From Bacteroidales bacterium (GTDB lineage: Bacteria; Bacteroidota; Bacteroidia; Bacteroidales; FEN-979): a DNA stretch of 64,000 nt. The stretch spans positions 3,308-67,307 of the forward strand of contig JALNWE010000008.1 of NCBI GenBank assembly GCA_023231065.1, given 5' to 3'. The translations under genes and the position numbers were made by a program. Of the stretch, positions 29,611 to 49,793 are shown piece by piece. Positions within the stretch are counted from its first letter, which is position 1, and the number at the start of each line of letters is the position of its first letter. Below the pieces are notes generated by a model that was not told where the DNA came from, made no database searches, and worked only from the letters and a program-made list of their open reading frames with translations.

Positions 29611-29622
29611 TCCGATCCCGAC

Positions 29623-30567
29623 ATGAAGAAAATAACCTATTTTCCGGGTTGTTCCGCGCACGGTACAAGCGAAGAATTCGAAAAAACCGTGAGAATGGTC
29701 ATGGAACACCTGGGTGTCCAACTGGAAGACATTCCAGACTGGAACTGTTGTGGCGCCACTTCTGCCCACACGCTGAATGAAAGTCTTTCTTACGCGCTCC
29801 CGCTCAGGAACCTCGTGTTAGCCGAAAAACTCAACAACGCCACGATGGCCATCCCCTGCGCCTCATGTTATCAGCGTATGAAAGTGACCAAAGTCCACAT
29901 GGACGGGAATCCGGAATTATGCAAAGAAATCAGTTCAACACTTGTTGAAGAAGGAGCTTATCAAGGCAGGATTGCCGTGAAATCCATGCTTCAATACTGT
30001 TATGAAGATATCGGATTAGAGGCCATTAAAGCTAAAGTAACGAAATCTTTAGCCGGGATGAAGCTGGCTTGCTATTATGGATGCCTCCTGACACGTCCCC
30101 AGGCGATTACCCAATTCGATTCACCAGAATATCCTATGTCAATGGACTATATCGTGGAGGCGCTGGGGGCCAAAGCTACTGAATTTGACTATAAGACCGA
30201 ATGCTGCGGCGCCTCCTTTTCTATTTCCAATTCGGATGTTGTACTCAACCTTACCGGAAAGATCCTGGAGATGGCCAAAGAGAGCGGCGCTCAGGCCATC
30301 GTGGTGGCTTGTCCGCTGTGCCAGTCAAACCTTGATATGCGGCAACCGGGTGCAGAAAAACGCGCGGGAAAGAAATTTGACCTTCCAATTTTTTATTTCA
30401 CGCAACTGATGGCCCTCGCTTTCGGTATGCCTGAAAAAGAGTTGATGTTCAATAAAAATATCGTTCCTGTTGAAAAGGCCTTGGCCAACATCGGAAAAAT
30501 TGAACCCACTCCCGAAAAAATTAAAAAACCTAAAAAAGCTGTTGAAGCAGAAAGCGAGGTTGAATAA
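29623..30567 (+). CDS. hdrB: Heterodisulfide reductase subunit B-like protein (two CCG domains)
   Basis: 314 aa. There are two cysteine-rich CCG motifs (WNCCGATSAH with upstream YFPGCS and CASCY; TECCGASFSI with YYGC and CPLCQ). Confidence 0.88.
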   Translation: MKKITYFPGCSAHGTSEEFEKTVRMVMEHLGVQLEDIPDWNCCGATSAHTLNESLSYALPLRNLVLAEKLNNATMAIPCASCYQRMKVTKVHMDGNPELCKEISSTLVEEGAYQGRIAVKSMLQYCYEDIGLEAIKAKVTKSLAGMKLACYYGCLLTRPQAITQFDSPEYPMSMDYIVEALGAKATEFDYKTECCGASFSISNSDVVLNLTGKILEMAKESGAQAIVVACPLCQSNLDMRQPGAEKRAGKKFDLPIFYFTQLMALAFGMPEKELMFNKNIVPVEKALANIGKIEPTPEKIKKPKKAVEAESEVE

Positions 30568-32540
30568 TGGCCCGAGTAGGAGTATTTGTTTGTTTTTGCG
30601 GCGCCAATATCGCCGACTTTGTTGATGTTCCCCAGGTGGTGGAAGAAACCAAAAAAATCCGTGAGGTAAAATTCGCCATCCATTATAAATACATGTGTTC
30701 CGATCCAGGGCAGCAGCAGATTCGCGATGCCATAGTTCAGCACCGGCTCACATCTGTCGTCGTAGCCGCGTGTTCCCCACGGATGCATGAAAAGACATTC
30801 CGGAAAGCCCTTTCGGATGCCGGGATGAACCCGTACCTGCTGGAAGTGGCCAACATACGGGAACATTCATCCTGGGTCCACCAGAAAGATAAAAAAGCTG
30901 CTACCGAAAAAGCTGCTGACCTGATACGGATGGCTGTTGCCAAATCGATAGCCAACGAACAATTGCATGAAATTTCAGTTCCGGTAACCAAACGCGCCCT
31001 GGTGATAGGAGGCGGTATCGCCGGTATCCAGGCTGCGCTGGACATTGCCGATGCGCGGATCCCGGTGGTACTGGTTGAAAAGAGCCCTTCCATCGGCGGC
31101 AAGATGGCCCAACTGGATGAAACATTTCCCACCCTGGATTGTTCCCAGTGTATTTTGACCCCCAAAATGGTGGATGTGGCTTCCCATCCTTATATCGAGC
31201 TGATCCCTTATTCCGAGGTCATTGAGCTCGACGGATTCGTGGGTAATTATAAAGCTAAGATCAGGAAGAAAGCCTCGTACGTGAATTTCAAAACCTGTAC
31301 CGGCTGTGGCGCCTGCTGGCAAAAATGTCCGGTGAAGGTTCCCAATGAATATAATATGGGATTAGACAACCGGAAAGCAATTTATACTCCTTTCCCGCAA
31401 GCAGTGCCTAACAAACCCGTGATCGATGCGGGGCATTGCAATATGCTCACCAAAGGGAAGTGTGGAATTTGTGCCAAGGTTTGTGAAAAAGGTTCCATTG
31501 ATTACAAGATGCAGGATGAGATCATTGAGCGGGAAATCGGCGCCGTGGTTGTCGCTACCGGTTATGACCTGTGGGATCCCAAGCCATACGAAGAATACGG
31601 GGTAGGACGTCATAAGGATATCATCACTTCCCTTGAGTTCGAACGGATGGTTTCGGCCAATGGCCCTACCAATGGTGTTCCTGTTCGGCCATCAGATGGA
31701 AAAGTACCTAAAAACGTTGTTTTTATCAAATGTATCGGATCACGCGATGAAGCCAAAGGGATAGAATACTGTTCCAAGATCTGCTGCATGTACACTACCA
31801 AGCATACCATCCTGCTGCACCACAAGGTACATGATTCACATTCCTATGTCTTTTATATGGACATCAGGGCAGCAGGAAAAGGTTACGAAGAGTTTGTCAA
31901 GAAGGCGCAAGTCGATACAGCTGCAACCTATCTTCGCGGACGGGTTTCGAAAATTTATAAAAAAGGCGATAAGCTGATCGTCCGTGGCGAGGATGCCCAG
32001 ATCGGGGAAGTTGTGGAGGTGGTTGCCGACCTTGTGGTATTGGCCACTGCCGTGATTGCCCCCAAAGATAATCCGGATCTCGCCCGTTTATTGGGTGTAT
32101 CTTACGATAAATACGGTTACATGTCGGAAGCCCATCCGAAACTCCGGCCGGTCGAAACGGCAAAAGCCGGTATTTTCTTAGCCGGCTGTACGCAGGCCCC
32201 GAAAGATATTCCCGATACGGTTGCCCAGGCGTCGGCTTGTGCGGCCAAAGTATGCGGACTTTTTTCGGGGGATACCATGAAGAAAGACCCGATGATCTCC
32301 ACGGTAAACAACGAATATTGTTCTGGTTGCCAGAACTGCGTAAAGGTTTGTCCTTACGGGGCCATTGTCACGGAAGAAGTTCCGATGGGCCATGGCTCCA
32401 AGGAGATGCGTGTTGTTGCCAGGATCAACGAAGGCGTTTGCCAGGGATGTGGTTCCTGTGTGGCTGTCTGCCGCAGCATGGCGATCACCCTGGCTGGTTT
32501 TACCGATTCTCAAATCATTAACGAGATAGTTTCAATCTGA
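30567..32540 (+). CDS. hdrA: Heterodisulfide reductase subunit A-like FAD/FeS flavoprotein
   Basis: 657 aa with an N-terminal VFVCFCGANI Cys cluster and a Rossmann motif ALVIGGGIAGIQAALDIA. It has four ferredoxin-type motifs (CTGCGACWQKCP, CGICAKVCEKG, CSGCQNCVKVCP, CQGCGSCVAVC). Its ATG overlaps the hdrB TAA by 1 nt. Confidence 0.92.
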   Translation: MARVGVFVCFCGANIADFVDVPQVVEETKKIREVKFAIHYKYMCSDPGQQQIRDAIVQHRLTSVVVAACSPRMHEKTFRKALSDAGMNPYLLEVANIREHSSWVHQKDKKAATEKAADLIRMAVAKSIANEQLHEISVPVTKRALVIGGGIAGIQAALDIADARIPVVLVEKSPSIGGKMAQLDETFPTLDCSQCILTPKMVDVASHPYIELIPYSEVIELDGFVGNYKAKIRKKASYVNFKTCTGCGACWQKCPVKVPNEYNMGLDNRKAIYTPFPQAVPNKPVIDAGHCNMLTKGKCGICAKVCEKGSIDYKMQDEIIEREIGAVVVATGYDLWDPKPYEEYGVGRHKDIITSLEFERMVSANGPTNGVPVRPSDGKVPKNVVFIKCIGSRDEAKGIEYCSKICCMYTTKHTILLHHKVHDSHSYVFYMDIRAAGKGYEEFVKKAQVDTAATYLRGRVSKIYKKGDKLIVRGEDAQIGEVVEVVADLVVLATAVIAPKDNPDLARLLGVSYDKYGYMSEAHPKLRPVETAKAGIFLAGCTQAPKDIPDTVAQASACAAKVCGLFSGDTMKKDPMISTVNNEYCSGCQNCVKVCPYGAIVTEEVPMGHGSKEMRVVARINEGVCQGCGSCVAVCRSMAITLAGFTDSQIINEIVSI

Positions 32541-33025
32541 TGGAAGCAGTAGCAAACAAACAACTTGTAAGCATTGAGAAACCCGAAATCGCGGCCCCTC
32601 CCGATTGGGAACCGGTGATCATCGGAATTCTCTGCAACTGGTGTTCTTATGCCGGTTCCGATCTTACCGGGACCTCGCGGATCCAGTATCCACCCAATAT
32701 CCGTATCATCCGTGTGCCTTGTTCTTCACGCGTGGATCCCTGGTTCCTCATCAAATCGTTGCAAACAACGGCTGATGGGGTACTTGTTTCGGGGTGCCAT
32801 CCGGGCGACTGCCACTATATCAGCGGTAATTACTATGCCCGCCGGAGGTTTCTGGTGACGAAAAAGTTACTCAATTTTGTCGGTTTTCATGAAGACCGGA
32901 TCCAATTTTCCTGGGTTTCGGCTGCCGAAGGCCCCAAATTTGCACAAGTTGTTGCCAAAGTAACCGGGGATATCAAGAAACTGGGCCCGCTTCATTTGTA
33001 TAAAAAAGAAAACTTCGAGAAATAA
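32540..33025 (+). CDS. mvhD: MvhD/FlxD-like [2Fe-2S] electron-transfer subunit
   Basis: 161 aa with ILCNWCSYAGSDLTG...IRIIRVPCSSRVDP...DGVLVSGCHPGDCHY, the MvhD (methyl-viologen-reducing hydrogenase delta) signature. It has 1-nt overlaps with hdrA and with the next gene. Confidence 0.9.
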   Translation: MEAVANKQLVSIEKPEIAAPPDWEPVIIGILCNWCSYAGSDLTGTSRIQYPPNIRIIRVPCSSRVDPWFLIKSLQTTADGVLVSGCHPGDCHYISGNYYARRRFLVTKKLLNFVGFHEDRIQFSWVSAAEGPKFAQVVAKVTGDIKKLGPLHLYKKENFEK

Positions 33026-33876
33026 TGGACTATACGAATCAAATCCGGGAGATTGCAACCAGGCTTTTTACCGAAGATAAGATCGATGTTTTTGTCGGTT
33101 ACCGGATGACAGGTTTTGATGATAACCAGGTACCGGCGCTGATCCGGGATCCCAAGGAGGTATCACAACTGGTTTTTACCGACAAATCGGTTTTCAACCT
33201 GACCAATTATCTCAAGAATGAGCATACGCGCAACAAGCGTGTGGGATTGGTAGTGAAGGGTTGCGATAGCCGTTCACTGAACCTGCTACTCACCGAAAGC
33301 CAGGTAAAACGCGATAAGTTATATGTTATCGGAATTGCCTGTGAAGGAGTTATTGATGAGGCAGGAAATAAAATGCAAAACTGCATGGAATGTGTTGTTC
33401 CCGATGCCGTGGTATATGATGAAATGGTAGGGACGCCAAAGGGGAAACAGGGGTATCAGGTGAATGCTGATATTCATGAACTCGCCTCGAAAGAGTTGGT
33501 TGAGCGACGCGCTTACTTCGAAGAGATATTTGAGAATTGCATCCGCTGCAACGCTTGTCGTCATTCCTGTCCGATGTGTTACTGTGCAAAATGCTGTATC
33601 GATCAGGAAACGTCAACACTCTATAACGGAGCCAACACTAAATCCAGCGCCTTCCATGCCCTGATGACCTGGTCGCTGCATTTAGCAGGCCGTTGCGTTG
33701 ATTGTCGTAATTGCGAAAAAGCCTGTCCAAGCCATTTGCCCCTTCACCTGTTGCACAAATGGAATGAGCGGGTGATTTTTGAGAACTTCCAGGAACACCT
33801 GGCAGGCGTGCAGGAAGGTGATCGCGGCGCTTTTTACAAATACAGCATGCAGGATCCCAATGATTTTATCATGTAA
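33025..33876 (+). CDS. FlxC-like iron-sulfur protein (2x[4Fe-4S])
   Basis: 283 aa with CIRCNACRHSCPMCYC and CVDCRNCEKACP. Position and cofactor motifs correspond to the FeS subunits of FlxABCD and sulfhydrogenase-beta-like proteins. Orthology is not verifiable here. Confidence 0.6.
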   Translation: MDYTNQIREIATRLFTEDKIDVFVGYRMTGFDDNQVPALIRDPKEVSQLVFTDKSVFNLTNYLKNEHTRNKRVGLVVKGCDSRSLNLLLTESQVKRDKLYVIGIACEGVIDEAGNKMQNCMECVVPDAVVYDEMVGTPKGKQGYQVNADIHELASKELVERRAYFEEIFENCIRCNACRHSCPMCYCAKCCIDQETSTLYNGANTKSSAFHALMTWSLHLAGRCVDCRNCEKACPSHLPLHLLHKWNERVIFENFQEHLAGVQEGDRGAFYKYSMQDPNDFIM

Positions 33877-33890
33877 CCCCTCTTTCTGAT

Positions 33891-34940
33891 ATGAACGTTG
33901 AAACATTTGTTACCGATAAAGCTGGCCTGGTAAAATTTTACGAAGCCATCATTGCCAATAACGAAACTTATGCCCCGGTCGAGAAGTTCGGGAAGTTTGA
34001 TTTCAAAAGGGTTTTAACTCTTGCTGAATGTGACCCTGATTCGCCCATCACAAAGACCATGAGCGCCAAGCCCTTGTTTTTCCCGCGTTCGGCTAAAATC
34101 CTGAAATATTCGGCAGATGCTTCCGGCACCGATGTTAAAGAAACCGATGAAGATCCGTTGACCGGAAAACGGGTAATCCTTGGAATGAAACATTGCGATG
34201 CCCGCGGCCTGCAGGTTTTGGACAAAGTATATAACTGGGATTATATCGATTCGGATTATCAGAAACGGCGTCAAAACAGCGTAATCATTTCTTCCCGTTG
34301 TGACAAAGCAGAAACTCACTGCTTTTGTACTTCCCTCGATTACGATGTGGAAAATCTCGATGCCATGGATGTGCTGATCGTGCATGGGCTGGACGGAAAG
34401 ATCTTCATTAAAGCAAGAACTGAGAAAGGGGAGACTTTCCTTAAAGCAAACCCCATTGATCCGGCATCCGGCATCCAACATTCAGCATCCGAAGAAGGGA
34501 TGAAAAAGCAATACGATGCTTTTGCAGCATCCTTCCGTTTGAAAATGGATTATAAAAATGTTAACGGAAAACTTTCAAAGATCTTTGATACCCCTGAATT
34601 TGAAAATGTTTCGGCCAGTTGTATCGGTTGCAATACCTGTGCTTTTATTTGTCCAACCTGTCATTGTTTCAAGATATCCGACGAAAAAATCAAAGATACA
34701 GGGATCCGTTATAAAAGCTATGATTCCTGTAATAATGGCTATTTTACTTTGATGGCCGGCGGTCATAATCCCCGTCCGGTCAAATACCGCCGGTGGCGTC
34801 AGCGGGCCATGCACAAGTTTGTTTACTACAAAGAACGCTTTGGCGAAAACCTATGCGTGGGCTGTGGAAGATGCGCTATTTCCTGTCCGGTGAACATCAG
34901 CATTTTTGAAGTGGTGAACCAGGTTGCGACAACGGTATAG
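33891..34940 (+). CDS. FlxB / AsrA / sulfhydrogenase-beta-like iron-sulfur protein
   Basis: 349 aa with CIGCNTCAFICPTCHCF and CVGCGRCAISCP plus upstream Cys (CDARG, CFC). This resembles the AsrA/HydB family that partners an AsrB/HydG-type flavoprotein. Confidence 0.65.
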   Translation: MNVETFVTDKAGLVKFYEAIIANNETYAPVEKFGKFDFKRVLTLAECDPDSPITKTMSAKPLFFPRSAKILKYSADASGTDVKETDEDPLTGKRVILGMKHCDARGLQVLDKVYNWDYIDSDYQKRRQNSVIISSRCDKAETHCFCTSLDYDVENLDAMDVLIVHGLDGKIFIKARTEKGETFLKANPIDPASGIQHSASEEGMKKQYDAFAASFRLKMDYKNVNGKLSKIFDTPEFENVSASCIGCNTCAFICPTCHCFKISDEKIKDTGIRYKSYDSCNNGYFTLMAGGHNPRPVKYRRWRQRAMHKFVYYKERFGENLCVGCGRCAISCPVNISIFEVVNQVATTV

Positions 34941-34943
34941 TTT

Positions 34944-35021
34944 GATGATGTGATGATGTGATGATGTGATGATGTGATGATGTGATGATGTGATGATGTG
35001 ATGATGTGATGATGTGATGAT
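34944..35021. repeat. Octanucleotide tandem repeat (GATGATGT) x 9.75
   Basis: Nine perfect contiguous 8-bp units (34944-35015) plus a 6-nt partial unit. It starts 3 nt after the TAG stop of the preceding gene and ends 64 nt before ATG 35086. Confidence 0.97.
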
Positions 35022-35085
35022 ATTCAAAACCATAAAGATAGTTCAGAGTTTAAACTAAGTAAAATATTTCAATAATAATTCTTCC

Positions 35086-35919
35086 ATGGAACAGTTGTTA
35101 GTCCCGATGATCTGCAGGATCGATAAAATGATCCAGGAAACCCCCGATGTCCGTACGTATCGTTTGAAGTTCAAGGAAGAAGGGTTGATGGAAAAATTCA
35201 GGTGGATGCCTGGTCAGTTTGTGGAATTTTCGTTGCTTGGTTCCGGGGAGTGTACTTTTTGCATCTCTTCTTCGTCAACCCGGAAAGGGTATTTTGATTG
35301 TTCGATCAAAAAGGCAGGATTAGTAACTGCGGACATCCACCGTCTGCTTGATGAAGGGGATTATGTTGGGATCCGGGGGCCCTTTGGCAATTGGTTCCCG
35401 TTGGACGAAATCAAAGGGAAGAACCTGCTTTTTGTGGGTGGTGGTATCGGTCTTGCGCCCCTCCGCGCACTCATCCAGTATTGCATCGACAACCGCAACG
35501 ATTATAAGGATTTCACCATTCTTTATGGCGCCCGCACTTCTGCCGATCTATGTTACAAGGACGAAATCAAGGAATGGCAGGAAAACCCGTTGCTGAAAGT
35601 CATATTGACCATTGACAAACCCGAAGAAGCCTGGCCCACCAACGTGGGAGTGGTCCCCAAGATCCTTGAAGAAGTTGTAAAGCCTGTGATCGAAAACACA
35701 AAGGTGATCACCTGTGGTCCCCCGATCATGATCAAATATACCATCCAGTCGTTAAAAAAACTTGGTTTTGCCGACCCTGACATCATCACCACCCTCGAGA
35801 TGAGGATGCAGTGTGGTTTAGGGAAGTGTGGCCGGTGCAACATCGGATCGACCTATGTATGCAAAGACGGACCAGTGTTTACCAACGAGCAATTAAGGGG
35901 TTTGCCGGACGAGTTCTAG
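35086..35919 (+). CDS. FlxA / AsrB / HydG-like FAD- and NAD(P)H-binding oxidoreductase with C-terminal [2Fe-2S]
   Basis: 277 aa with a ferredoxin-reductase-type fold (PGQFVEFSL, LLFVGGGIGLAPLRAL) and the C-terminal cluster motif CGLGKCGRCNIGSTYVCKDGPVF, as in the PyrK/AsrB/HydG family. Confidence 0.85.
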   Translation: MEQLLVPMICRIDKMIQETPDVRTYRLKFKEEGLMEKFRWMPGQFVEFSLLGSGECTFCISSSSTRKGYFDCSIKKAGLVTADIHRLLDEGDYVGIRGPFGNWFPLDEIKGKNLLFVGGGIGLAPLRALIQYCIDNRNDYKDFTILYGARTSADLCYKDEIKEWQENPLLKVILTIDKPEEAWPTNVGVVPKILEEVVKPVIENTKVITCGPPIMIKYTIQSLKKLGFADPDIITTLEMRMQCGLGKCGRCNIGSTYVCKDGPVFTNEQLRGLPDEF

Positions 35920-36081: not shown

Positions 36082-37791
36082 ATGAAAAAATTCTTTATCC
36101 TTTTTCTTGGTTTATTGTTGGTCTTTATATTTCAAACGGAGGCTTTTGCACAGAATAAAACGGTTGTGCTTGGAGAAAAGGCGCTTTTGCACCATGAAAC
36201 GCCCGATGATCCATATCTCCCGCCTCCTGCCCTTAAAATGGCCTCGCCCGGGTATCACTATAAGAGTTCGGAATTCTTTACGGTACAGGTCAATGTTGAT
36301 TCAGAAGGGAATAATATTATCGGTGATGCAGCCAATGAACCTTCCATTGCCATTGATCCGACGAATCCCAACAACATGGTCATAGGCTGGCGGCAGTTTG
36401 ATAACGTAAACAGCAATTTCAGACAGGCTGGTTATGGATATACGACCGACGGTGGACTTTCGTGGACATTCCCGGGGAAGATCAATCCTGGTGTTTTCCG
36501 TTCTGATCCGGTACTCGATTTCGATACCGCGGGTAATTTTTATTATAATAGCCTGAATTCAGACAATAGTGTTTATACCTGTAAAGTCTTTAAAAGTATC
36601 AATGGGGGCGCTGACTGGGATGCCGGGGTGAATGCCAAAGGAGGGGATAAACAATGGATGGCTATTGACCGGAGTGGCGGTGTTGGTACGGGAAATATAT
36701 ATTCATCATGGACTTCCTATTACAGTTCGTGTTCACCGGGTTTTTTTACCCGTTCTGTTAACGATGGCGCCAGTTTTCAAAGTTGTACTACCATTCCTGA
36801 CGAACCTTACTGGGGAACCATGACTGTTGGGCCTGACGGGGAATTATATGTAGCCGGGACAAGTTCCGGGTATAATGGAATAATTGTGGCTAAGTCCACC
36901 ACCGCACAAGATCCATCCGGCGCCGTCACCTGGGATTTATCCACACCGGTTGATCTGGATGGTAATATCAGCGGATGGACGCCCATCAACCCGGTCGGGA
37001 TCCTTGGCCAGGCAAATATTGCAGTCGATCGTTCAAACGGCCCGGGCAGGGGAAATGTATATGTGATGGCTTCGGTCGAACGTATTTCAAACAATGATCC
37101 GGCCGATGTCATGTTTGCCAAAAGTACCGATGGCGGTGAGACATGGAGCGCTCCTGTACGGATCAACAACGATAACAATACCACCAAGTATCAATGGTTT
37201 GGGACCATGTCGGTAGCCCCAAACGGCAGGATCGATATTATCTGGGTCGATAACAGGAATGCCCCGACAGGCTCTTATAATTCGGCGCTTTATTACTGTT
37301 ATTCCGATGACCAGGGTGAGACATGGTCTATCAATAAAAAGCTCTCCAACTCATTCAATCCTCACCTGGGCTTTCCTCAACAGGAAAAAATCGGGGACTA
37401 TTACGATATGGAATCGGACGATGCCGGCGCCCATCTTGCCTGGGCCAATACCTTCAACGGGGAACAGGATGTTTATTATACCCACATCATTCCGCAGATC
37501 GTGGGGGTGGAAGAAAATTCGGAAAACCCGGAAATGTTTTCTATTACAAGTTATCCCAACCCGCTCCGCGATAAAGGGACTATCCAATACCAGGTTCCCG
37601 GAGACCAGAGGGTGAAAGTCGTCCTTTGTAACATGGTTGGTGAAGAGATCCTTACCCTTGTAGATAAAGAGCAACAGCCGGGCACCTATACCGTGAATTT
37701 TTCAGGGGAATCCCTCCCGGCCGGGTATTACCTGTGCCGTTTGATGGCCGGATCACAGATCAGGACAGCCAAGATGGTGAAGGTCATGTAA
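36082..37791 (+). CDS. Secreted BNR/Asp-box repeat (sialidase-fold) protein with T9SS C-terminal sorting domain
   Basis: 569 aa with a signal peptide and Asp-box motifs (TTDGGLSWTF, SINGGADWD, STDGGETWS, SDDQGETWS). The CTD is FSITSYPNPLRDKGTIQY...GYYLCRL. Confidence 0.8.
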   Translation: MKKFFILFLGLLLVFIFQTEAFAQNKTVVLGEKALLHHETPDDPYLPPPALKMASPGYHYKSSEFFTVQVNVDSEGNNIIGDAANEPSIAIDPTNPNNMVIGWRQFDNVNSNFRQAGYGYTTDGGLSWTFPGKINPGVFRSDPVLDFDTAGNFYYNSLNSDNSVYTCKVFKSINGGADWDAGVNAKGGDKQWMAIDRSGGVGTGNIYSSWTSYYSSCSPGFFTRSVNDGASFQSCTTIPDEPYWGTMTVGPDGELYVAGTSSGYNGIIVAKSTTAQDPSGAVTWDLSTPVDLDGNISGWTPINPVGILGQANIAVDRSNGPGRGNVYVMASVERISNNDPADVMFAKSTDGGETWSAPVRINNDNNTTKYQWFGTMSVAPNGRIDIIWVDNRNAPTGSYNSALYYCYSDDQGETWSINKKLSNSFNPHLGFPQQEKIGDYYDMESDDAGAHLAWANTFNGEQDVYYTHIIPQIVGVEENSENPEMFSITSYPNPLRDKGTIQYQVPGDQRVKVVLCNMVGEEILTLVDKEQQPGTYTVNFSGESLPAGYYLCRLMAGSQIRTAKMVKVM

Positions 37792-40012
37792 AATCCATCA
37801 CTTTTTCACAGAGGATGGAGGAAACGATCATGGCCAATCGCTTATGGGCAACAGGCATTGAAGAATAGCAAACAATGGGCAAAACCCATTCGAGGAGGGC
37901 TAAGTAGTAAGGGATCGGATCAGGATTTTCCCTGGCGCTGTCGTAAGCATATTTCCTCATTTTCAATGTCAGCGCGGCATTTTTCATCACTTTGCCGCTG
38001 TGCTTCCCGGTATAATTGATTTCAGGAATATCTTTCAAAGTCCCGGCCTGATAAAAGCCGTGAATGAAACGGAGATAATCGGCCAGGTCGCTGTCATTCT
38101 CAAGTGGCGCATTGTCAACCAGGAAAATAGCTTCGAGACGGGCAAAATCGGAGATGATCGATCTGGGTTGTGTTTCAGAGAAGTCGATGAGATAAACATT
38201 CATGTTTTCATCCAGCAGTATATTCTGCATATTCAGGTCGCCATGACAAATCCCGGTGAAATATTCCATACCCCGTTCACGGCGCCGGGAAAACTCATGT
38301 TTCAGAAACCAATATGGATTCAGGATTGGTTGCTTCTTTTCAGGGATGTTCAGGTATTTTTCATCGGATGAAACAGAAAATAAATCATGGACTGTTTGAT
38401 AGATATAAGGGAAAAATGTAAAGGTCGGGTCGTGGTCCTTAAACGGGAAGATGGTTTTCTTTACAGGCTGTCCATACCAAGGTTTCAGGATTTGCAGAAA
38501 TATCTTGTCGAAAAGCGGTTCAAGGAAAGAAATATCAGAATGTAAATAATAATGAGTCAGCCATTTCAACTGGCTCGATTCGCCACCTATACCGACGAAA
38601 TTGTACCTAAGCGCTCCCGTCTCGCCATAAAATTCTGCGCCCAATACAACCGCGCTGTTGTTAAAAATATATGGAAGTGCATATTTTTTGCATCGTTCCG
38701 ATTCCCTGGTGATCAGGTTCCGGTTGGCGATTTTAAGAACAGTAGGCCTCATTTTCCGGCCTTCATGGTCAAATGAGGCGACCTGAAAGGTTTGCGCCGA
38801 AAACCCACCGTGCAAGGGGTCGATCACCAACTTTGATGAATCGGTATAAAGGAGCCTGGTTAAAAATGCTTTATGGGATTCGAAAATAAATCCGGGTTTT
38901 ATATCGATCGTCAGTCTTTTGGTCCTGGCATCGACGAAATTACCGGCCTGAAACAGCCATATAAATGGATTTTCGAGGATGGTTTCCTGATTGACAGGCT
39001 CAACGGCCAGGATGTTCTCAAAAGTCAAATGCCGCGAAATATCATGGATTGAATTCGTCCGGGTGGAAAGATCCAATTCGGCTAACAAAAAAGTAATCCC
39101 GGTGAAATCTTTTTTTCCTGTATTTTCTGTTAATAATTGTCGAAAATGGATCATCCCGTTATCCCTGACAAGCTCCTGCAAATACTCATTATTTGTCACA
39201 GCCAGGGTCAGGGAAGGCCTGTTTTTATCCGGGTTGGCAATGACCAGGAGAATAACCGAACTTTTCGAAAGGGTATCTTCTTCAAAATACCTGATAACAT
39301 TGTTCAGTTGGCTGAACGTCACCTGGCCGGGTGAGGATGATTTCAGTGAACCGGTCGGGTGGCATCCAAATGACAAGGCTTCACAAACCGGAAACCCGGT
39401 CTTTACCGGATCGGAAGTAATCCTGAAATCAGGATCCGCGGATTGATTTAGCGGTAAAAAGCCGGAACAATTATCGAGAGAAACAAAAAAATCGGAACAA
39501 CCATTTCCGGGTGCTGCGGCATTGGAAAGCGATCCAAACCCAAGGGCATCACCAAGTTCATGATAACCTACTATTTCATTCGTCAGGCATAGTTGTCCTG
39601 TTATTTTATCTTCACCGGTTGAGTGATAGATCCAATGATGATGATCGACGGAAATCTCACTAAGGACCGGTTTGTTTTTTCTACCGGAGTGGATGGCCGC
39701 CAAGGCAGCCCCCACATTGGTAACGAGGTGTAAACCATGATGAAGCCCGGCAATTTCCAGCACGTGAAACACATCCGGAACGACCCCGGCAATATAGAAG
39801 ATGTTCCGGCCTGCCTGTAATTTCTTGTTGGTTTTTAAAAGGATCCGTATTCCTGCACTTGACATATAAGGACAGTCCGACAGATCAAGAATGATATCCT
39901 GACCATTTTCGGGTAAGGCAATCAGGGCGAGATCAAGGTCATTGCTGCTATTGGCATCCAGTTTACCAATGGGTTTAACACAACGGATTTTCTCATCTGT
40001 GATAATGTTCAT
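37784..40012 (-). CDS. STAS-domain / unknown central region / protein-kinase-like (APH/ELK fold) fusion protein
   Basis: 742 aa. The N-terminal ~110 aa fit the anti-sigma-antagonist STAS pattern (ILDLSDCPYMSSAGIRILL...FHVLEIAGL). The C-terminal ~350 aa carry kinase motifs: TVLKIA (Lys), catalytic loop ICHGDLNMQNILL (H at 38243-38245) and YLIDFSE (DFG-like). About 280 central residues are unassigned. The 3' end overlaps the convergent BNR gene by 8 nt. Confidence 0.8.
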   Translation of the reverse strand: MNIITDEKIRCVKPIGKLDANSSNDLDLALIALPENGQDIILDLSDCPYMSSAGIRILLKTNKKLQAGRNIFYIAGVVPDVFHVLEIAGLHHGLHLVTNVGAALAAIHSGRKNKPVLSEISVDHHHWIYHSTGEDKITGQLCLTNEIVGYHELGDALGFGSLSNAAAPGNGCSDFFVSLDNCSGFLPLNQSADPDFRITSDPVKTGFPVCEALSFGCHPTGSLKSSSPGQVTFSQLNNVIRYFEEDTLSKSSVILLVIANPDKNRPSLTLAVTNNEYLQELVRDNGMIHFRQLLTENTGKKDFTGITFLLAELDLSTRTNSIHDISRHLTFENILAVEPVNQETILENPFIWLFQAGNFVDARTKRLTIDIKPGFIFESHKAFLTRLLYTDSSKLVIDPLHGGFSAQTFQVASFDHEGRKMRPTVLKIANRNLITRESERCKKYALPYIFNNSAVVLGAEFYGETGALRYNFVGIGGESSQLKWLTHYYLHSDISFLEPLFDKIFLQILKPWYGQPVKKTIFPFKDHDPTFTFFPYIYQTVHDLFSVSSDEKYLNIPEKKQPILNPYWFLKHEFSRRRERGMEYFTGICHGDLNMQNILLDENMNVYLIDFSETQPRSIISDFARLEAIFLVDNAPLENDSDLADYLRFIHGFYQAGTLKDIPEINYTGKHSGKVMKNAALTLKMRKYAYDSARENPDPIPYYLALLEWVLPIVCYSSMPVAHKRLAMIVSSILCEKVMDFT

Positions 40013-40050
40013 AGTCGATATAATTATTTAATCTCACCGGGTCAAACCAT

Positions 40051-41442
40051 TTAATGATAGGCAAATAAAATAACCGGAGGGATCAGCAACAAACAACCAA
40101 GGATCAAAAAGATAATCGATAAAGGAAGCATAAAACGGAGCCATTTATCATACGGAATATTTCCGATGGCAAGAATGCCCATGGTCACACCGCTGGTTGG
40201 AAAAATATTGGTAAACAACCCATCGCCCAACTGGTATGCCAGCACTGCTGTCTGACGGGAAATGCCGATGAGGTCGCTCAAGGGCGCCATCAGGGGCATC
40301 GTAAGGGCAGCCTGTCCTGATCCGGAAGGGACAAAGAAGTTCATAAAACCCTGGAAAAAGAACATCATCTGGACCGAGACGATTTGTGGAAATTGTCCCA
40401 TGGTTCCGGCGATTCCATTCAGAATGGTATCAATAATTTTTCCATCGGTTGCCACGATCAGCATTCCGCGGGTGAGCCCGATAACCAACGCGGCGGTCAT
40501 CATATCGCGGGCGCCATCCAGAAATGCCCCCACAGTGGTATTGGAGGGCAGGCGGAAAAAAAGCGCTGTCACGATCCCCATGGCAAGGAATAACCCGGCA
40601 ATTTCGTTGATGTACCAATCCCAGACATTGACCCCGATAATGAGCATGACAAGAGTTGCAAAGAAAATAAAAAGGACGAGTTTTCTTTTCAGGGTGAAAG
40701 CAAGATCCTCATTACTATGATAGGCGGTAAGGTCCCTTTTACGGTCCAATTCATAGACGATGCTCCGTTCAGGATTCCGTTCTATTTTCCGAACATACAT
40801 CATGACAAAGGTGATGGCAGCAGTCATCATAATAAGCCATACGATGATCCTGTATTCCCATCCGCTGAAAACCGGGATTTCCGCGATTCCCTGTGCGATC
40901 CCGATAGTGAAAGGGTTGCTGAATGCGCCGGCGAATCCCGATGCAGCCCCGATGAACGGCATAGCGATCCCGGTAAGGGAATCATAACCCATGGCAATGG
41001 CCAGGGGGATCGTGATCAATACGAAAACCATTACCTCCTCACACATACCAAAAGAAGCGCCCCCCAATGAAAACAGGAACATGATGATGGGAATGATAAA
41101 TTTCTTGATGGCCGGATTTTTCCGGGTAGCTTCCAGGATGCTTGCCAATCCCGCATTGATAGCCCCGGTTTTATTGACAATTCCGAATGCGCCACCAATC
41201 AGCAGAACAAAAGCAATGATCTGGGCCGCTGATATCATCCCTTTGATGGGGGCTGTAAATAAGTCTATTAAACCCTGCGGCTTTGAGGCCACGTGATGAT
41301 ATGTCCCCGGAACCACCACCTGGCGGCCATTATACTCATTACGGTCAAACTCACCCGCCGGGATAATCCATGTCAGGATCAGGAAAAGGATCAGGATAAC
41401 AGATACAATAATCAGCGTGTGCGGGATCTTTTTCTTTTCCAT
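40051..41442 (-). CDS. YfcC / DcuC-superfamily anaerobic carrier-type transporter
   Basis: About 463 aa from ATG 41442 (MEKKKIPHTLIIVSV). It is polytopic, with the pattern IAFVLLIGGAFGIVNKTGAI...MFLFSLGGASFGMCEE typical of YfcC-family permeases. A -7 motif at 41479-41486 favours this start over 41481. Confidence 0.82.
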   Translation of the reverse strand: MEKKKIPHTLIIVSVILILFLILTWIIPAGEFDRNEYNGRQVVVPGTYHHVASKPQGLIDLFTAPIKGMISAAQIIAFVLLIGGAFGIVNKTGAINAGLASILEATRKNPAIKKFIIPIIMFLFSLGGASFGMCEEVMVFVLITIPLAIAMGYDSLTGIAMPFIGAASGFAGAFSNPFTIGIAQGIAEIPVFSGWEYRIIVWLIMMTAAITFVMMYVRKIERNPERSIVYELDRKRDLTAYHSNEDLAFTLKRKLVLFIFFATLVMLIIGVNVWDWYINEIAGLFLAMGIVTALFFRLPSNTTVGAFLDGARDMMTAALVIGLTRGMLIVATDGKIIDTILNGIAGTMGQFPQIVSVQMMFFFQGFMNFFVPSGSGQAALTMPLMAPLSDLIGISRQTAVLAYQLGDGLFTNIFPTSGVTMGILAIGNIPYDKWLRFMLPLSIIFLILGCLLLIPPVILFAYH

Positions 41443-41478
41443 TGGAAATTTTGTTAAAGGGAGTAAAAAGAGAATGTA

Positions 41479-41486
41479 CAAATATA
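41479..41486 (-). promoter_or_regulatory. Candidate -7 promoter element (TATATTTG on minus strand)
   Basis: Reverse complement of caaatata. It lies 36 nt upstream of ATG 41442. Confidence 0.35.
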
Positions 41487-41599
41487 TTTTTATTTTTTTA
41501 TTTCGTTATTTTTTGTTTGGATATTTTCGTTTTTATCAGGTTTCTATAATGACCGCGAGGAAACAGGAAAAATTTATTCCAATTTGGTATAGAATGTAA

Positions 41600-41607
41600 T
41601 ATATTTG
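41600..41607 (+). promoter_or_regulatory. Candidate -7 promoter element (TATATTTG)
   Basis: TAnnTTTG match 35 nt upstream of ATG 41643. Confidence 0.4.
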
Positions 41608-41642
41608 TATAAACCAAAGTCAAATTCAAAAACATACACATT

Positions 41643-42740
41643 ATGAAAAAAATTTTACTTCTTCTGGCTGTTATGCTATTATTCATTGCAGATAGCTATT
41701 CCCAGGCATCTTTTAATACCGGGGCCATGGAAATTGCCGTAAATCAATATGGCAGGATCCGGCTTTTTACTCCTGATGGGACAAGGCACCTGCAACGCGC
41801 TTCGATTTTAGTCGGGACGTCGGCAACCTCTGTATTTGATTACACCAATGATGCCGGGGAATTAGAGCCAACGGTATTGGTCAGTAATCCCCTCATAAGC
41901 GATTATGAAATCTATGGCGCCTATGACAACTCTTATTCGTCGTTACCCCCTGCCATCATTGAAAAATTGAATGCTTACGGGTGGAATAACGGCGCTTATG
42001 CCATCATTAAATTGAATGTTAAAAACATTGAAACCTCCAACATCAATGCTTCTATAGGTTTAGACATCATTCCAGAACTAAACCAGGAGTATGGATACGA
42101 TTCTGTCACGTACAACAGCGAAGCAGGTGTTATCTGGTTTCACAGGGGGAACCAGGAAACCATGGGAATGAAGCTCCTCTCTGCATCGTTATCATCCCTT
42201 TACTCTTTTGAATGGTTTACGGATTATTCTACGGATGCCAATTATTGGAATTGGTTAAATCATGGATCATTGCAGTCTGAATATATTTCAACTACGGCTG
42301 ACGGGCCTGTTACCATTACTTCACAGAGTCCCGTTGTCTTAGGTCCAGGGGTGTCCTGTGATGTGTTTTACGCGATGGCGCTCGGGGCCGATGAGGAAAC
42401 TATGCTGGCCAACATTGCCGCGGCGGAACAAAAGTATTATATCATCACCGGAGTTGAGGATAAAGAACTTTCGGCCAATGAACTAAATCTCGGTCAAAAT
42501 TCCCCCAATCCTTTTAATCAATCGACAACTATCCGTTATCAGCTTCCGGATAATGGGTTTGTAAGTTTAAAGGTATATAATTCCATCGGGAACGAAGTAG
42601 CCACACTGGTCAATACAAAACAGACAAAAGGATCCTACACCGTTCATTTCGATGCCAGTGGTTTATCTGGCGGAATGTATTATTACAAGCTTAGTTGTAA
42701 CGACATGGTCAAGTCAAATAAAATGTTGCTGGTTAAATAA
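41643..42740 (+). CDS. Secreted hypothetical protein with T9SS C-terminal sorting domain
   Basis: 365 aa with a signal peptide (LLLLAVMLLFIADSYSQA). The CTD is LGQNSPNPFNQSTTIRYQLPDNGFVSLKVYN...GMYYYKL. The N-terminal ~270 aa are unrecognised. Confidence 0.7.
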   Translation: MKKILLLLAVMLLFIADSYSQASFNTGAMEIAVNQYGRIRLFTPDGTRHLQRASILVGTSATSVFDYTNDAGELEPTVLVSNPLISDYEIYGAYDNSYSSLPPAIIEKLNAYGWNNGAYAIIKLNVKNIETSNINASIGLDIIPELNQEYGYDSVTYNSEAGVIWFHRGNQETMGMKLLSASLSSLYSFEWFTDYSTDANYWNWLNHGSLQSEYISTTADGPVTITSQSPVVLGPGVSCDVFYAMALGADEETMLANIAAAEQKYYIITGVEDKELSANELNLGQNSPNPFNQSTTIRYQLPDNGFVSLKVYNSIGNEVATLVNTKQTKGSYTVHFDASGLSGGMYYYKLSCNDMVKSNKMLLVK

Positions 42741-42875: not shown

Positions 42876-44099
42876 TTATAGTTTGATCCAAACCACTGTC
42901 ATGGCATGGGGGCTGACATTGGTGATCCAATCTTCAGGGTTTGATCCATCCAGGTTAGCCCGGATGATCTTCCCATCGGGATTTGAGTTGGAATTTTTAA
43001 CTCCCCAGAAGAGTTTGTTATGCGTTTCATCAAGGGTTATTCCCCAGGTAGCTTTGAGACCATAATCGCCGATCTTTGTGAAACCAGTTCCATCCAAATT
43101 ACACATAAAAACCCCATTTTCAGGGGCAACAGTCCCGTCTGAACCATACAGTACAAGATAAGCTTTCCCGCTCCGGAAATCTATTTCCATGGCAGTTCCG
43201 TCCACATCGGAGGTCCCTGTAGCATCGAAGGTTATCTTGGTAAAATTCGTTCCATCAAAATTCACGGACCAAAACCCACCCAGGTAATCTGTTTTATCAT
43301 TTACCAGATAAATTTTATTGGTGGAGGGATCGTATTGCATATCAATCGGAAATTCGGGCTCGTTGTCGCCACCATGCATAGCGATGAATTCTTCAGGATT
43401 GGAACCGTCGAGGTTAGCCCTGTAAATACCACCGGTGCGTCCCCAGTATATTTTATCCCCCAAAACAAAGATGGCTTCGGCATCGCCCACGAGTTCCTGT
43501 CCGGGAACAGTGGCATCCAGGATTTTCTCGGGATTTGTTCCATCGGCATTATATCGGTAGATAGCCTGATTGGAAAAATCCGTTATATACACTTTCTTAT
43601 GAGCAGTATCGACAGCAATTCCATAAGGCCTTGACAAATCGGTAGCTACAAAATCCTGCTGTAACGGTGGCGCATCGTCCAGAATGACCATGTGCCCATT
43701 TCCGGGATTTCCCCTTGTTGTAAAGTACAGAACCTGTGAAAGACCTGCCAATGGATCCTTAACATTGACGACCATGGTCTTTACTGCCTGGTTATAATAG
43801 ACGGAATTGACAGGTGCACAGGTAAGCTTTACCGTGTATAAGCCAGGGGTTGTATAATTAGCGACCGGGTTGGTTTCAGTGGAAGTTTGACCGTTTCCAA
43901 AATCCCAGGAATAGCTCAATGCGTTTAATGAGGCATTGGTAAAAGTGACTTCACACGGGGCATATCCCTGGTTGGATATCGCGTAACTGAAATCGGCCAC
44001 GGTACTTGCAGCAGGGGTGCCCATATCCTTTTCTTTGCATCCTGTTGCTGCGGTCATTATAAGCAGGATACAGATGAGATAAAAATAGTTTCTTTTCAT
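42876..44099 (-). CDS. Surface lipoprotein with PKD domain and YWTD-type six-bladed beta-propeller repeats (SusE/F-position binding-protein candidate)
   Basis: 407 aa with a lipobox (IMTAATGCKE). The PKD domain reads ADFSYAI...VTFTNAS...YSWDFGNGQTS...PGLYTVKLT. Repeated blades are present (KKVYITDFSNQAIYRYNADGTNPE, DKIYWGRTGGIYRANLDGSNPE, NKIYLVND, NKLFWGV...IIRANLDGSNPE). It is the last gene of the cphE-susC-susD operon. Confidence 0.8.
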   Translation of the reverse strand: MKRNYFYLICILLIMTAATGCKEKDMGTPAASTVADFSYAISNQGYAPCEVTFTNASLNALSYSWDFGNGQTSTETNPVANYTTPGLYTVKLTCAPVNSVYYNQAVKTMVVNVKDPLAGLSQVLYFTTRGNPGNGHMVILDDAPPLQQDFVATDLSRPYGIAVDTAHKKVYITDFSNQAIYRYNADGTNPEKILDATVPGQELVGDAEAIFVLGDKIYWGRTGGIYRANLDGSNPEEFIAMHGGDNEPEFPIDMQYDPSTNKIYLVNDKTDYLGGFWSVNFDGTNFTKITFDATGTSDVDGTAMEIDFRSGKAYLVLYGSDGTVAPENGVFMCNLDGTGFTKIGDYGLKATWGITLDETHNKLFWGVKNSNSNPDGKIIRANLDGSNPEDWITNVSPHAMTVVWIKL

Positions 44100-44129
44100 A
44101 TATTGCTACTTTAACAGGTTTGAAAATGA

Positions 44130-45464
44130 TCAATAACCGGGATTTTGGGTCATCAGTTTGTTGGTCTGCAACTCGCTGAGCGGTATCGGGAAGAGGGTAT
44201 ATTTTTCATCAATTCCCAGGATAGTGGTCGCTCTTTTTGTTCTTATAAGGTCGGACCACCTTTGGCTTTCAAAAGCGAATTCATGCCGGCGTTCGCTTTC
44301 AATGGCCAGTTTAAGTTCAGGATAGTCGGTTGCTGTTGTGGGGTCAAGCCCAGCCCTGGCGCGCAATATATTAATATCATTCCTGATATCTTCAATATTC
44401 CCGTTTGTATAGGCGCGGGCTTCAGCGCGGATCATATACATCTCGGCCAGGCGGAGCACATAAACCCGGTCAGTCCCTGATACGATATCCTTGTATTTGA
44501 TCCCGTAAGGCAGGTTATTTTCATCAAAAGTTATGGAGGTATTGAACCGGGTGGTATCGTTCGTTTGAAAAAGCTGAACAAATTCGTTGGTCGGGGAAAC
44601 TTCATATCGGCCGGTCAGGCTGACAGGGAAGAAATACTGGGCCAGACGGTTATAGTTCTGAGCATCGAAGATTACTTCGAAAATGGATTCCGTGGTATTC
44701 CCGTTGAACAGGTCAGCAAAGGCAGGCGCCATGATGTACCCCCCTTCGTTGATCACCTTGTCGGCTTTCGTTATGGCCAGGGCGGCGATGGCGGGGTCGC
44801 TGGTGTACTGGAATTGTGACAGATAGACCCTTGCCAGTAAAGCCGTCGCGCTGAAAGAGCTGGCGCGGCCCAGGGAGCGGGTTGAAGGCAGCAATTCTTC
44901 AGCCTCCAGCAAATCAGAGATAATCTGGGTATAGACTTCAGGAACCGTGTTCCGGGCCTGGTCAATCGTACTCAGATCAAGCGTTGGTTGTGTTTTGATG
45001 GGAATTCCGCCAAAGAGGGCCAGCAGGTTGAAATGCGACAAGGCCCGAAGGAAAAGCCCGTCCCCTGTATAGAGGTTCCTTTCATCGGTTGTCATATCAA
45101 TACCGTCAATCCTTGCCAGCACATTGTTGACCCGGTTGATGCAATCGTAATTGGAAGACCAGATACCATCGATGATCCCATTATCGGCTGCGATCTCATT
45201 GTCGGCAATCTGGAGATAATCGCGGGTTGTCCCGGTCCACGCCAGGTTATCGGCAGCAAGATCTTCAACGATGACGAAGTTGCGTGCGTAATTACCAACA
45301 TCATGCAGGGAATAATAAGCCCCCGTGATGGCTTTGTCCACTCCTGACTTATCACTGATAGCCTGATCGGCCGATATCGATTCGGTGGGCTCGATATTCA
45401 GCATTTTGGTGCAGGAGATCGTCGCAAATGCGAAAACAATCAGTATGAATAATATTTTTTTCAT
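44130..45464 (-). CDS. susD: SusD/RagB-family outer-membrane nutrient-binding lipoprotein
   Basis: 444 aa with a lipoprotein signal (FAFATISCTK). It has the characteristic helical TPR-like N-half and C-terminal motifs (ERRHEFAFESQRWSDLIR, FPIPLSELQTN). It starts 18 nt after the susC stop. Confidence 0.9.
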   Translation of the reverse strand: MKKILFILIVFAFATISCTKMLNIEPTESISADQAISDKSGVDKAITGAYYSLHDVGNYARNFVIVEDLAADNLAWTGTTRDYLQIADNEIAADNGIIDGIWSSNYDCINRVNNVLARIDGIDMTTDERNLYTGDGLFLRALSHFNLLALFGGIPIKTQPTLDLSTIDQARNTVPEVYTQIISDLLEAEELLPSTRSLGRASSFSATALLARVYLSQFQYTSDPAIAALAITKADKVINEGGYIMAPAFADLFNGNTTESIFEVIFDAQNYNRLAQYFFPVSLTGRYEVSPTNEFVQLFQTNDTTRFNTSITFDENNLPYGIKYKDIVSGTDRVYVLRLAEMYMIRAEARAYTNGNIEDIRNDINILRARAGLDPTTATDYPELKLAIESERRHEFAFESQRWSDLIRTKRATTILGIDEKYTLFPIPLSELQTNKLMTQNPGY

Positions 45465-45482
45465 TTTTTTCAGAATTAAAGG

Positions 45483-48392: not shown

Positions 48393-48407
48393 AAGGTTTA
48401 GCTTTGG

Positions 48408-49691: not shown

Positions 49692-49793
49692 TTAAAGGAG
49701 AGCATTACCAGACAACGAAAATAAAAAATTATATATTAGGAAAAATGCCTCAATTACAATTTTTTCTCAACTTTGCTGATCAAACATGAAAAG

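Follow-up and report, generated by a model that had tools for sequence, protein, structure and literature searches.

A 64-kb window of contig JALNWE010000008.1 from a Bacteroidales bacterium (the window being the whole 64,000-nucleotide stretch of DNA analyzed) carries the gene for a 742-amino-acid protein in which a STAS domain, a middle domain with a predicted acetolactate decarboxylase fold, and a TCAD9 kinase domain follow one another from the N to the C terminus (Table 1). We refer to this gene as the target. Its ATG start codon agrees with those of its homologues in the family alignment. The list of open reading frames (ORFs) bears out the gene layout given in a preliminary description of the locus: 38 nucleotides (nt) separate the target from a carrier gene on the same strand, and the 3' ends of the target and of a convergent BNR-repeat ORF share 8 nt (37784-37791). 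The full carrier ORF spans 40051..41481 on the reverse strand (476 amino acids, TTG start), and its Met14 lies at position 41442. Against the NCBIfam YfcC model, which is titled "putative basic amino acid antiporter," the carrier scores 396 bits, under the equivalog cutoff of 500. A promoter and terminator scan of positions 37400-41800 gave counts no higher than the shuffled expectation, with no listed site in the 38-nt gap, and the carrier and target are probably cotranscribed in this genome. Because no 19-residue segment of the target reaches a mean Kyte-Doolittle hydropathy of 1.6 (best mean, 1.57) and the N terminus is polar, the protein is predicted to be cytoplasmic, with neither a transmembrane segment nor a signal peptide, as described earlier. 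The gene can be judged real and under selection from its homologues, since it has 299 relatives at E <= 1e-3 and nine key residues that are invariant in all 91 aligned family members. An AlphaFold2 model of the full-length protein (91 sequences) had a mean predicted local distance difference test (pLDDT) value of 85.7 and a predicted TM-score (pTM) of 0.71.

Table 1. Features of the target gene and its surroundings. Positions refer to the window, except in the last row, which gives a locus on another contig of the same genome.
Feature	Position	Strand	Basis
Target gene, 742 amino acids, STAS + acetolactate-decarboxylase-fold + TCAD9 kinase	37784..40012	-	ORF, ATG start, Pfam
STAS domain, SpoIIAA/RsbV type, residues 1-105	39698..40012	-	PF01740 residues 4-103, E 2.4e-12
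Motif YMSSAGIR, residues 49-56, with Ser52 as candidate phospho-acceptor	39845..39868	-	
Middle domain, about residues 115-375, predicted alpha-acetolactate decarboxylase (double beta-sheet) fold	38888..39670	-	AlphaFold2 model + VIA-align
TCAD9 (PF19974) kinase, APH/choline-kinase-like fold, residues 396-742	37787..38827	-	Pfam + Foldseek
Motif TVLKIA, residue 424, predicted ATP-anchoring Lys427 paired with Glu437	38726..38743	-	
Predicted catalytic loop HGDLNMQNILL, residue 590 (His590, Asp592, Asn597)	38213..38245	-	
Motif YLIDFSE, residue 607, predicted metal-binding Asp610 (DFG equivalent)	38174..38194	-	
Upstream co-oriented DcuC/YfcC-family carrier	40051..41442	-	PF03606 E 3e-114
Convergent BNR-repeat protein, 569 amino acids, type IX secretion system (T9SS) sorting tail	36082..37791	+	Pfam/NCBIfam
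Own-genome STAS-X, 403 amino acids	L081:5653-6864; contig C49, 11652-12863		

The N-terminal domain had been recognized correctly as a STAS domain, with a PF01740 score of 47 bits against a cutoff of 22.6; the TIGR00377 score (49.9 bits) falls slightly below its cutoff of 53.45. Foldseek matched the domain to SpoIIAA (1th8_B; target TM-score 0.83, root-mean-square deviation [RMSD] 2.0) and to 4hyl_A (TM-score 0.81), and a phmmer search of the PDB retrieved 4hyl, 1auz, and 6m36. In the phmmer alignments, Ser52 falls on the serine that follows "MD" in Bacillus subtilis SpoIIAA (1auz) and RsbV (6m36), which we take to be the phosphorylated serine of those proteins. Ser51, Ser52, and Gly54 are each invariant in 91/91 aligned family members, and Ser52 is thus a candidate phosphorylation site at the start of helix 2. 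Among distant relatives, Ser52 was kept in 20/20, whereas the catalytic Asp of the kinase was replaced in 3/20 and the Lys in 2/20. Because Ser52 persists where the fused kinase appears to be dead, it would seem to serve something beyond that kinase. Partner switching among STAS proteins, RsbW-type kinases, and PP2C phosphatases is the textbook means of sigma factor control. The target resembles SpoIIAA and RsbV in fold, Pfam family, and conserved serine, as well as in the PP2C and RsbW-like genes that frequently neighbor its relatives. In contrast, the known proteins are single domains of about 110 amino acids that release a sigma factor, while the target has two further domains, a fused kinase as its presumed output, and no sigma/anti-sigma pair nearby.

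The reading of the C terminus as kinase-like also held. In the full-length target, TCAD9 was matched at E 3.7e-35 (122.3 bits against a cutoff of 40), and the C-terminal piece alone scored 125.6 bits; profile positions 5-66 and 276-410 of 429 are covered. In the piecewise Pfam scan, the match covers approximately residues 396-699. The APH family (PF01636) gave a local match confined to residues 582-628 (E 2.6e-6, 27.8 bits against 23.2). A Hanks-type assignment was not obtained, as Pkinase (PF00069) reached 15.6 bits against a cutoff of 31.7 and covered residues 585-611 only. All three kinase motifs lie where they had been reported, and Lys427, Glu437, His590, Asp592, Asn597, and Asp610 are each invariant in 91/91 aligned members. 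With the Lys-Glu pair, the catalytic loop, and the metal-binding Asp intact, the kinase is predicted to be catalytically competent.

Between these domains lies a region in which the preliminary description found nothing recognizable. At the level of sequence families this remains so: residues 105-360 match no Pfam family at E <= 10, and a sequence profile of the middle domain retrieved no PDB entry at E <= 10. A fold can nevertheless be assigned. An AlphaFold2 model of residues 108-396 alone (75 sequences) had a pLDDT of 90.0 and a pTM of 0.90, and a VIA-align search with the model of the middle domain against 48,161 chains retrieved the acetolactate decarboxylase 6inb_A (Z 13.0, RMSD 3.1, 166 residues aligned). 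Further matches were 1xv2 (Z 11.1), 4bt2 (Z 10.8), and PTD012 (Z 7.9), with all other rows at 5.5 or below; Foldseek agrees on the decarboxylase fold (E 3.6e-4, probability 1.0). On the basis of this model, the formerly blank 260-residue region is assigned the acetolactate decarboxylase fold.

The likeness to acetolactate decarboxylases (AlsD/BudA; 6inb, 4bt2, 1xv2) is one of fold, with RMSD values of 3.1-3.4 over 164-166 residues. The middle domain differs from them in its sequence (7-10% identity and no sequence-family match) and in having no conserved His triad. The metal (Zn) site of these enzymes is formed by His residues. Because no His in residues 108-396 is invariant or even conserved at 90% or more, the middle domain looks to have lost this site, and a role as a decarboxylase is highly improbable. 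A homologue search with residues 108-396 limited to shorter proteins returned two same-family fragments only, and thus no stand-alone middle domain at that sensitivity; an ESM Atlas look-up with the same residues gave no usable match. We found no report that pairs a STAS domain with acetolactate decarboxylase, nor any paper on the STAS-TCAD9 fusion, in the literature searched.

A word-indexed family search, in which 8000 candidates were scored, yielded the 299 relatives mentioned above, and 177 species genomes encode a relative, with Mangrovibacterium, Draconibacterium, and Mariniphaga among the labels of these carriers. Both STAS and TCAD9 are present in 118/120 of the best relatives listed, which are about 740-750 amino acids long, come from Bacteroidales, Prolixibacteraceae, and similar groups, and bear the source names "STAS domain-containing protein" or "anti-sigma factor antagonist." When the kinase domain alone was searched exhaustively, 805 representatives reached E <= 1e-3, and 139 of them reached E <= 1e-30. 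Most of the 150 kinase-domain representatives listed are 700-830 amino acids long with a C-terminal kinase. We chose 34 of these 150 for a domain scan. STAS and TCAD9 occurred together in 25/34, down to about 27% identity, and TCAD9 occurred without STAS in 7/34, some of which are probably fragments. One of the remaining two (P0244) has the order Cache-HAMP-PP2C-TCAD9, and the other, which repeats Pkinase motifs, is unrelated. Among 301 evenly sampled genomes of the order, 15 from 11 families had a full-length kinase gene, one of these genes with an in-frame stop; neither of the two other genomes from the window's own family had the target gene. The distribution of the STAS-TCAD9 gene is therefore patchy. 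In one genome of the order, the family member (G018:C78:3902-6025) is split into two matching segments by an in-frame TAA and is either a broken copy or the product of an assembly error.

TCAD9 also occurs with other partners. At one locus (L144:7446-10644), it is encoded behind a two-component receiver domain, and the next gene encodes a receiver-CHAT protease. A second TCAD9 gene (L153:85-2971) showed no receiver match and starts near a contig end; a receiver-CHAT protease gene again follows it. Further TCAD9 loci were seen at L159:1184-3010 and L160:124-2517, and isochorismatase-TCAD9 is among the other architectures. The receiver-TCAD9 protein of L144 and the target share a kinase family placed behind a phospho-acceptor input domain, but the input is a receiver in the former and a STAS plus decarboxylase-fold domain in the latter. 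Since TCAD9 is also found behind a receiver, the N-terminal position before TCAD9 is likely an input slot.

The name of the kinase family suggests another role. TCAD9 stands for "ternary complex associated domain 9" and is tied to vWA-MoxR-VMAP conflict systems in a figure legend of PMC10910872; it is also listed among the KINtaro kinase-like families in a preprint (bioRxiv 10.64898/2026.09.18.752743). An active APH-like kinase in ternary conflict systems, with low-molecular-weight substrates suggested, is described by Kaur et al. 2020 (PMC7159879); the name TCAD9 is absent from the main text of that paper, and the TCAD domains may be defined in its supplements. The target could accordingly be a component of a nucleoside triphosphate-dependent conflict (defense) system. 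Its membership in PF19974 (122 bits against 40), the receiver-CHAT protease genes that follow TCAD9 genes at L144 and L153, and the patchy distribution of the family (15/301 genomes, 0/2 in the window's family) are consistent with such a role. However, no vWA, MoxR, or VMAP was seen among the scanned window ORFs or among the labeled or scanned neighbors of relatives, STAS is the dominant partner in the chosen representatives, and the recurrent neighbors are housekeeping-type signaling and transport genes. We give membership in a conflict system a very small chance.

To place the gene in context, ORFs were called and clustered in 80 genome loci of relatives; one locus (L039), in which the target is cut by a contig end, was left out, leaving 79. 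The preliminary description had suggested that the protein might regulate the adjacent YfcC-type carrier or the neighboring utilization locus, which is a SusC/SusD peptide locus at 42876-52483. STAS domains do regulate transporters, as in SulP proteins and, through MlaB, in the Mla system. The 38-nt same-strand gap has no predicted terminator, and the utilization locus has, as stated earlier, no regulator among its scanned ORFs. Comparison with relatives points the other way. A BLASTP search with the carrier against the ORFs of 80 genome and 80 metagenome loci found a DcuC/YfcC homologue within 8 kb of the gene in 0/159 other loci. Because this search found the window's own copy only, the YfcC adjacency appears to be local, an accident of gene order that is not conserved. 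The window neighbors, BNR gene included, all form singleton clusters, and none recurs among relatives. Even the closest relatives (L001-L004, 66-75% identity) have neighbors different from those in the window; the two genomes of the same family without the gene add to this, and nothing ties the target to the utilization locus. Local regulation is thus largely refuted by comparative sequence analysis, and we leave it next to no chance.

Two recurrent layouts were seen around relatives. In layout A, the order is a HisKA kinase, a receiver-PP2C protein, an RsbW-like HATPase_c_2 protein (139 amino acids), a STAS protein (109 amino acids), a HATPase_c_2-GNAT-like protein (494 amino acids), the target, and a GNAT (289 amino acids). 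In layout B, the order is a PF04392 binding protein, a protein here called STAS-X (407 amino acids), a BPD_transp_2 permease, an ABC ATPase, a further binding protein, and the target. The HATPase_c_2-GNAT-like gene (hereafter RsbW-GNAT) is directly upstream and co-oriented in 11/79 loci, a PF04392 binding protein is the direct upstream neighbor in 8/79, and a GNAT is directly downstream in 10/79. By tally, a gene for inner-membrane transport stands at position +1 or -1 in approximately 24/79 loci; among these transporter neighbors, the PF04392 system is the only specific one. The other direct neighbors of relatives are diverse. In the RsbW-GNAT proteins, which are present in 19/301 genomes (6/15 with the kinase versus 13/286 without), Pfam recognizes no domain but HATPase_c_2. 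The proteins at L048:6430-7914, L005:6478-7962, and ten more loci are 494 amino acids long and combine the RsbW-like HATPase_c_2 domain with a GNAT-like consensus region of about 360 amino acids. In four metagenome loci (L087:340-4504, L088, L089, and L114:4341-8681), some of which may come from a single organism, the STAS-TCAD9 gene is flanked by a 342-amino-acid ORF and an ORF of 252-262 amino acids. The former is a K+ channel (Ion_trans_2 + TrkA_N) in L087, and the downstream ORF in L087 and L114 encodes an Exo_endo_phos protein.

A strict census counted a locus when a STAS, RsbW-like, or PP2C gene lay within 8 kb, with plain receivers not counted. Such switch genes were found in 27/79 genome loci, in 19/41 loci with at least four ORFs on each side, and in 10/52 metagenome loci, whose family members are more distant (24-38% identity to P0238). 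The 3.37-Mb genome from which the window comes has approximately four switch-gene places outside the target, from which we estimate that a random 18-kb stretch would hold a switch gene in about 2-3% of cases. On that account, the enrichment near relatives is large. Together with the alignment of Ser52 to the SpoIIAA/RsbV serine, these neighbors uphold the earlier suggestion that partner switching is involved.

The PF04392-type transporter carries its own STAS subunit, STAS-X, which is related to the target. Alignment of the target family with 17 STAS-X proteins by hhalign gave a probability of 99.65% (E 4.7e-25) over target residues 3-250, so that the homology spans the STAS domain and the first half of the decarboxylase-fold domain. 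STAS-X retains the motif YLSSAGIR and, unlike the target, has near-invariant His347, His349, and His383; in the PDB, its profile matches nothing but STAS proteins. STAS-X was found in 31/301 genomes and lies directly beside the permease, in the order binding protein, STAS-X, permease, ATPase, in 28/31 loci (L163-L192 and the own-genome locus L081); the remaining loci are one fused form and two cut contigs. Genes for a receiver-PP2C protein, an RsbW-like protein, and a small STAS protein often adjoin STAS-X. STAS-X appears to be the STAS subunit of an ABC importer and to be regulated by phosphorylation.

STAS-X is present in 15/15 genomes with a full-length kinase versus 16/286 genomes without one, each time at a separate place from the kinase gene. 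Fisher's test on this co-occurrence gave 3.7e-17, with the genomes counted not being independent of one another. The co-occurrence of RsbW-GNAT with the kinase is looser. Conserved linkage to transporters, on which the preliminary description had staked its proposal, is therefore lacking for YfcC-type carriers and strong for an ABC system of PF04392 type that includes a STAS subunit of its own. The N-terminal half of the target is probably derived from the STAS subunit of this transporter and probably shares partners with it. The closest known parallel in gene arrangement is MlaB, the STAS subunit of the MlaFEDB ABC transporter, which is encoded in the transporter operon. It is STAS-X, not the target, that resembles MlaB in this respect. 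STAS-X differs in serving a transporter made of a PF04392 binding protein and a BPD_transp_2 permease and in having an extra decarboxylase-fold domain. The target, in turn, adds a kinase and lies in no ABC transporter operon in this genome.

Candidate switch partners are supplied by the genome itself. On contig C49, an operon encodes a histidine kinase, a receiver-PP2C protein, STAS-X, a permease-binding-protein fusion, and an ATPase, with no RsbW-type kinase. Contig C115 encodes a 792-amino-acid dCache-HAMP-PP2C-HATPase_c_2 protein and, after it, a STAS protein. A further RsbW-type domain is encoded on contig C1, in a protein of 164 amino acids.

Taken together, these observations favor, at roughly 45%, a reading in which external switch enzymes act on Ser52 of the STAS domain and thereby gate the target as an output kinase. 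We infer a direction of signaling with the STAS domain as input and the kinase as output, together with physical docking and a substrate of the kinase. Ser52 would be bound, phosphorylated, and dephosphorylated by separate enzymes, RsbW-type GHKL kinases and PP2C phosphatases, whose genes lie elsewhere in the genome. The didomain of STAS and decarboxylase fold, its metal site apparently lost, would probably dock on the partners of STAS-X or bind a ligand. The state of this N-terminal half would then gate the C-terminal TCAD9 kinase, which would phosphorylate a protein or a small molecule. The copy in the window would be an orphan, placed behind a YfcC-type carrier by an accident of gene order.

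Several observations weigh against an externally switched output kinase. The window ORFs scanned around the target include no HATPase_c_2, sigma factor, or other partner-switching gene, and no switch gene lies within 8 kb in 52/79 genome loci and 42/52 metagenome loci. Moreover, the target's own genome has no homologue of RsbW-GNAT or of the downstream GNAT partner. The counts of kinase and STAS-X ignore shared ancestry and may in part reflect that the gene arose when STAS-X was duplicated. In P0244, TCAD9 comes right after PP2C, which is the slot of the RsbW-like domain in the C115 protein; because the two slots are equal, there is a hint that TCAD9 may itself be a STAS kinase. Finally, the closest structural relatives of the kinase domain are small-molecule kinases, which leaves a signaling output unproven.

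The hint from P0244 bears on the proposal, made in the preliminary description, of a self-contained switch. TCAD9 would here phosphorylate Ser52 in cis, between copies, or the Ser of STAS-X, as a non-GHKL replacement of RsbW that is reset by PP2C. There is a precedent in Mycobacterium tuberculosis, where the Hanks kinase PknD phosphorylates a STAS protein. What stands of the proposal is that a kinase and a phosphorylatable STAS domain share one chain, with key residues invariant in 91/91 members. The PP2C-TCAD9 order of P0244 mirrors the PP2C-HATPase_c_2 order of the C115 protein, the C49 operon has a phosphatase and no RsbW-type kinase, and all 15 kinase-bearing genomes carry STAS-X. Nevertheless, the proposal is somewhat disfavored by the retention of Ser52 in 20/20 distant relatives despite loss of the catalytic Asp in 3/20, and by the RsbW-type kinase gene directly upstream in 11/79 loci. 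Nor does the kinase clearly displace RsbW: STAS-X has an RsbW-like gene within about 9 kb in 4/15 genomes with the kinase and in 7/16 without it, and a sister genome (G242) has the same RsbW-less STAS-X operon without a TCAD9 kinase. Receiver-TCAD9 fusions, too, favor an input role for the N-terminal domain. A complex prediction for kinase residues 396-742 with STAS residues 1-106, run without controls, gave scores of 0.00 and 0.00 against a mark of 0.32, which count neither way. We consider a self-contained switch unlikely.

A more specific proposal joins this idea to the transporter. TCAD9 would represent a second, non-GHKL class of STAS kinase, and the target would be a STAS-X paralogue with a captured kinase. 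It would phosphorylate its own Ser or that of STAS-X, be reset by the receiver-PP2C of the operon, and gate the PF04392-type ABC transporter by a switch free of sigma factors. We regard this version as a long shot. The confidences attached to the several readings are not meant to sum to one.

The structural relatives of the kinase suggest instead a regulated small-molecule kinase. The nearest folds retrieved by Foldseek were choline kinase (1nw1, E 2.5e-6), maltokinase (4u94), and aminoglycoside, macrolide, and corramycin phosphotransferases. H-x-D-x(4)-N is a phosphotransferase motif, and the loop of Hanks kinases is HRDLK; the HGDLN loop of the target fits the former pattern and does not have the Lys of the latter. 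Thus, APH and choline kinases are the best structural matches, and they share with the target the H-x-D-x(4)-N loop and a DF-x metal site. They differ in that the APH Pfam match of the target is local only and in that the target kinase is fused to signaling domains. The middle domain would bind a metabolite, possibly one handled by the ABC transporter, the kinase would phosphorylate it, and the STAS domain would only tune the reaction. The enzyme-derived fold of the middle domain, one that binds small molecules, fits this picture, as do the GNATs, which are the commonest direct neighbors and recall paired small-molecule-modifying enzymes. The low-molecular-weight substrates suggested for ternary-system APH-like kinases in PMC7159879 point in the same direction. 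On the other hand, a common fold does not reveal the substrate, the metal site of the middle domain looks absent, with no His conserved at 90% or more, and the neighbors of relatives are signaling genes rather than a pathway. The PP2C-TCAD9 and receiver-TCAD9 fusions also suggest signaling at the level of proteins. A small-molecule kinase is, in our judgment, doubtful, and it would differ from the externally switched output kinase mainly in its substrate.

Outputs of partner switching other than sigma factors are poorly mapped, above all in Bacteroidota. The STAS-TCAD9 family, which at least 177 species genomes encode, has no annotation beyond "anti-sigma factor antagonist." If the target is indeed an output kinase gated from outside, it would offer a specific example of a phospho-switch that acts through a second kinase of unrelated type. 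The 15/15-genome tie to an ABC transporter with its own STAS subunit makes the hypothesis of regulated transport testable. Comparison with relatives also corrects the tempting local reading of YfcC regulation. As far as checked, the decarboxylase-fold assignment and the transporter link are new for a family that is annotated but uncharacterized.

Other features of the window were seen along the way. The utilization locus at 42876-52483 comprises a SusC/SusD pair with genes for a PKD protein, an S51 peptidase, an amidohydrolase, and an M28 peptidase. The YfcC-type carrier sits one divergent gene away from this locus and may belong there rather than with the kinase. A 2079-amino-acid protein with SpvB, FG-GAP, and RHS-repeat matches is encoded at 21629-27868 on the reverse strand, and a LytTR response regulator is encoded near it at 19928-20674 (reverse strand). 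The GC content over this stretch is 0.33-0.41, compared with about 0.45-0.50 elsewhere in the window, and the stretch may be an acquired island of polymorphic-toxin type. At 29038-35919 on the forward strand lie seven heterodisulfide-reductase/Mvh-like genes, whose products include a CCG domain protein, FlpD/MvhD, a flavoprotein with 4Fe-4S domains, and a DHODB-type FAD/NAD protein. Finally, positions 15729-17891 (reverse strand) encode a 720-amino-acid Peptidase_C10 protein with an I69 inhibitor-like prodomain, CUB domains, and a T9SS sorting tail.

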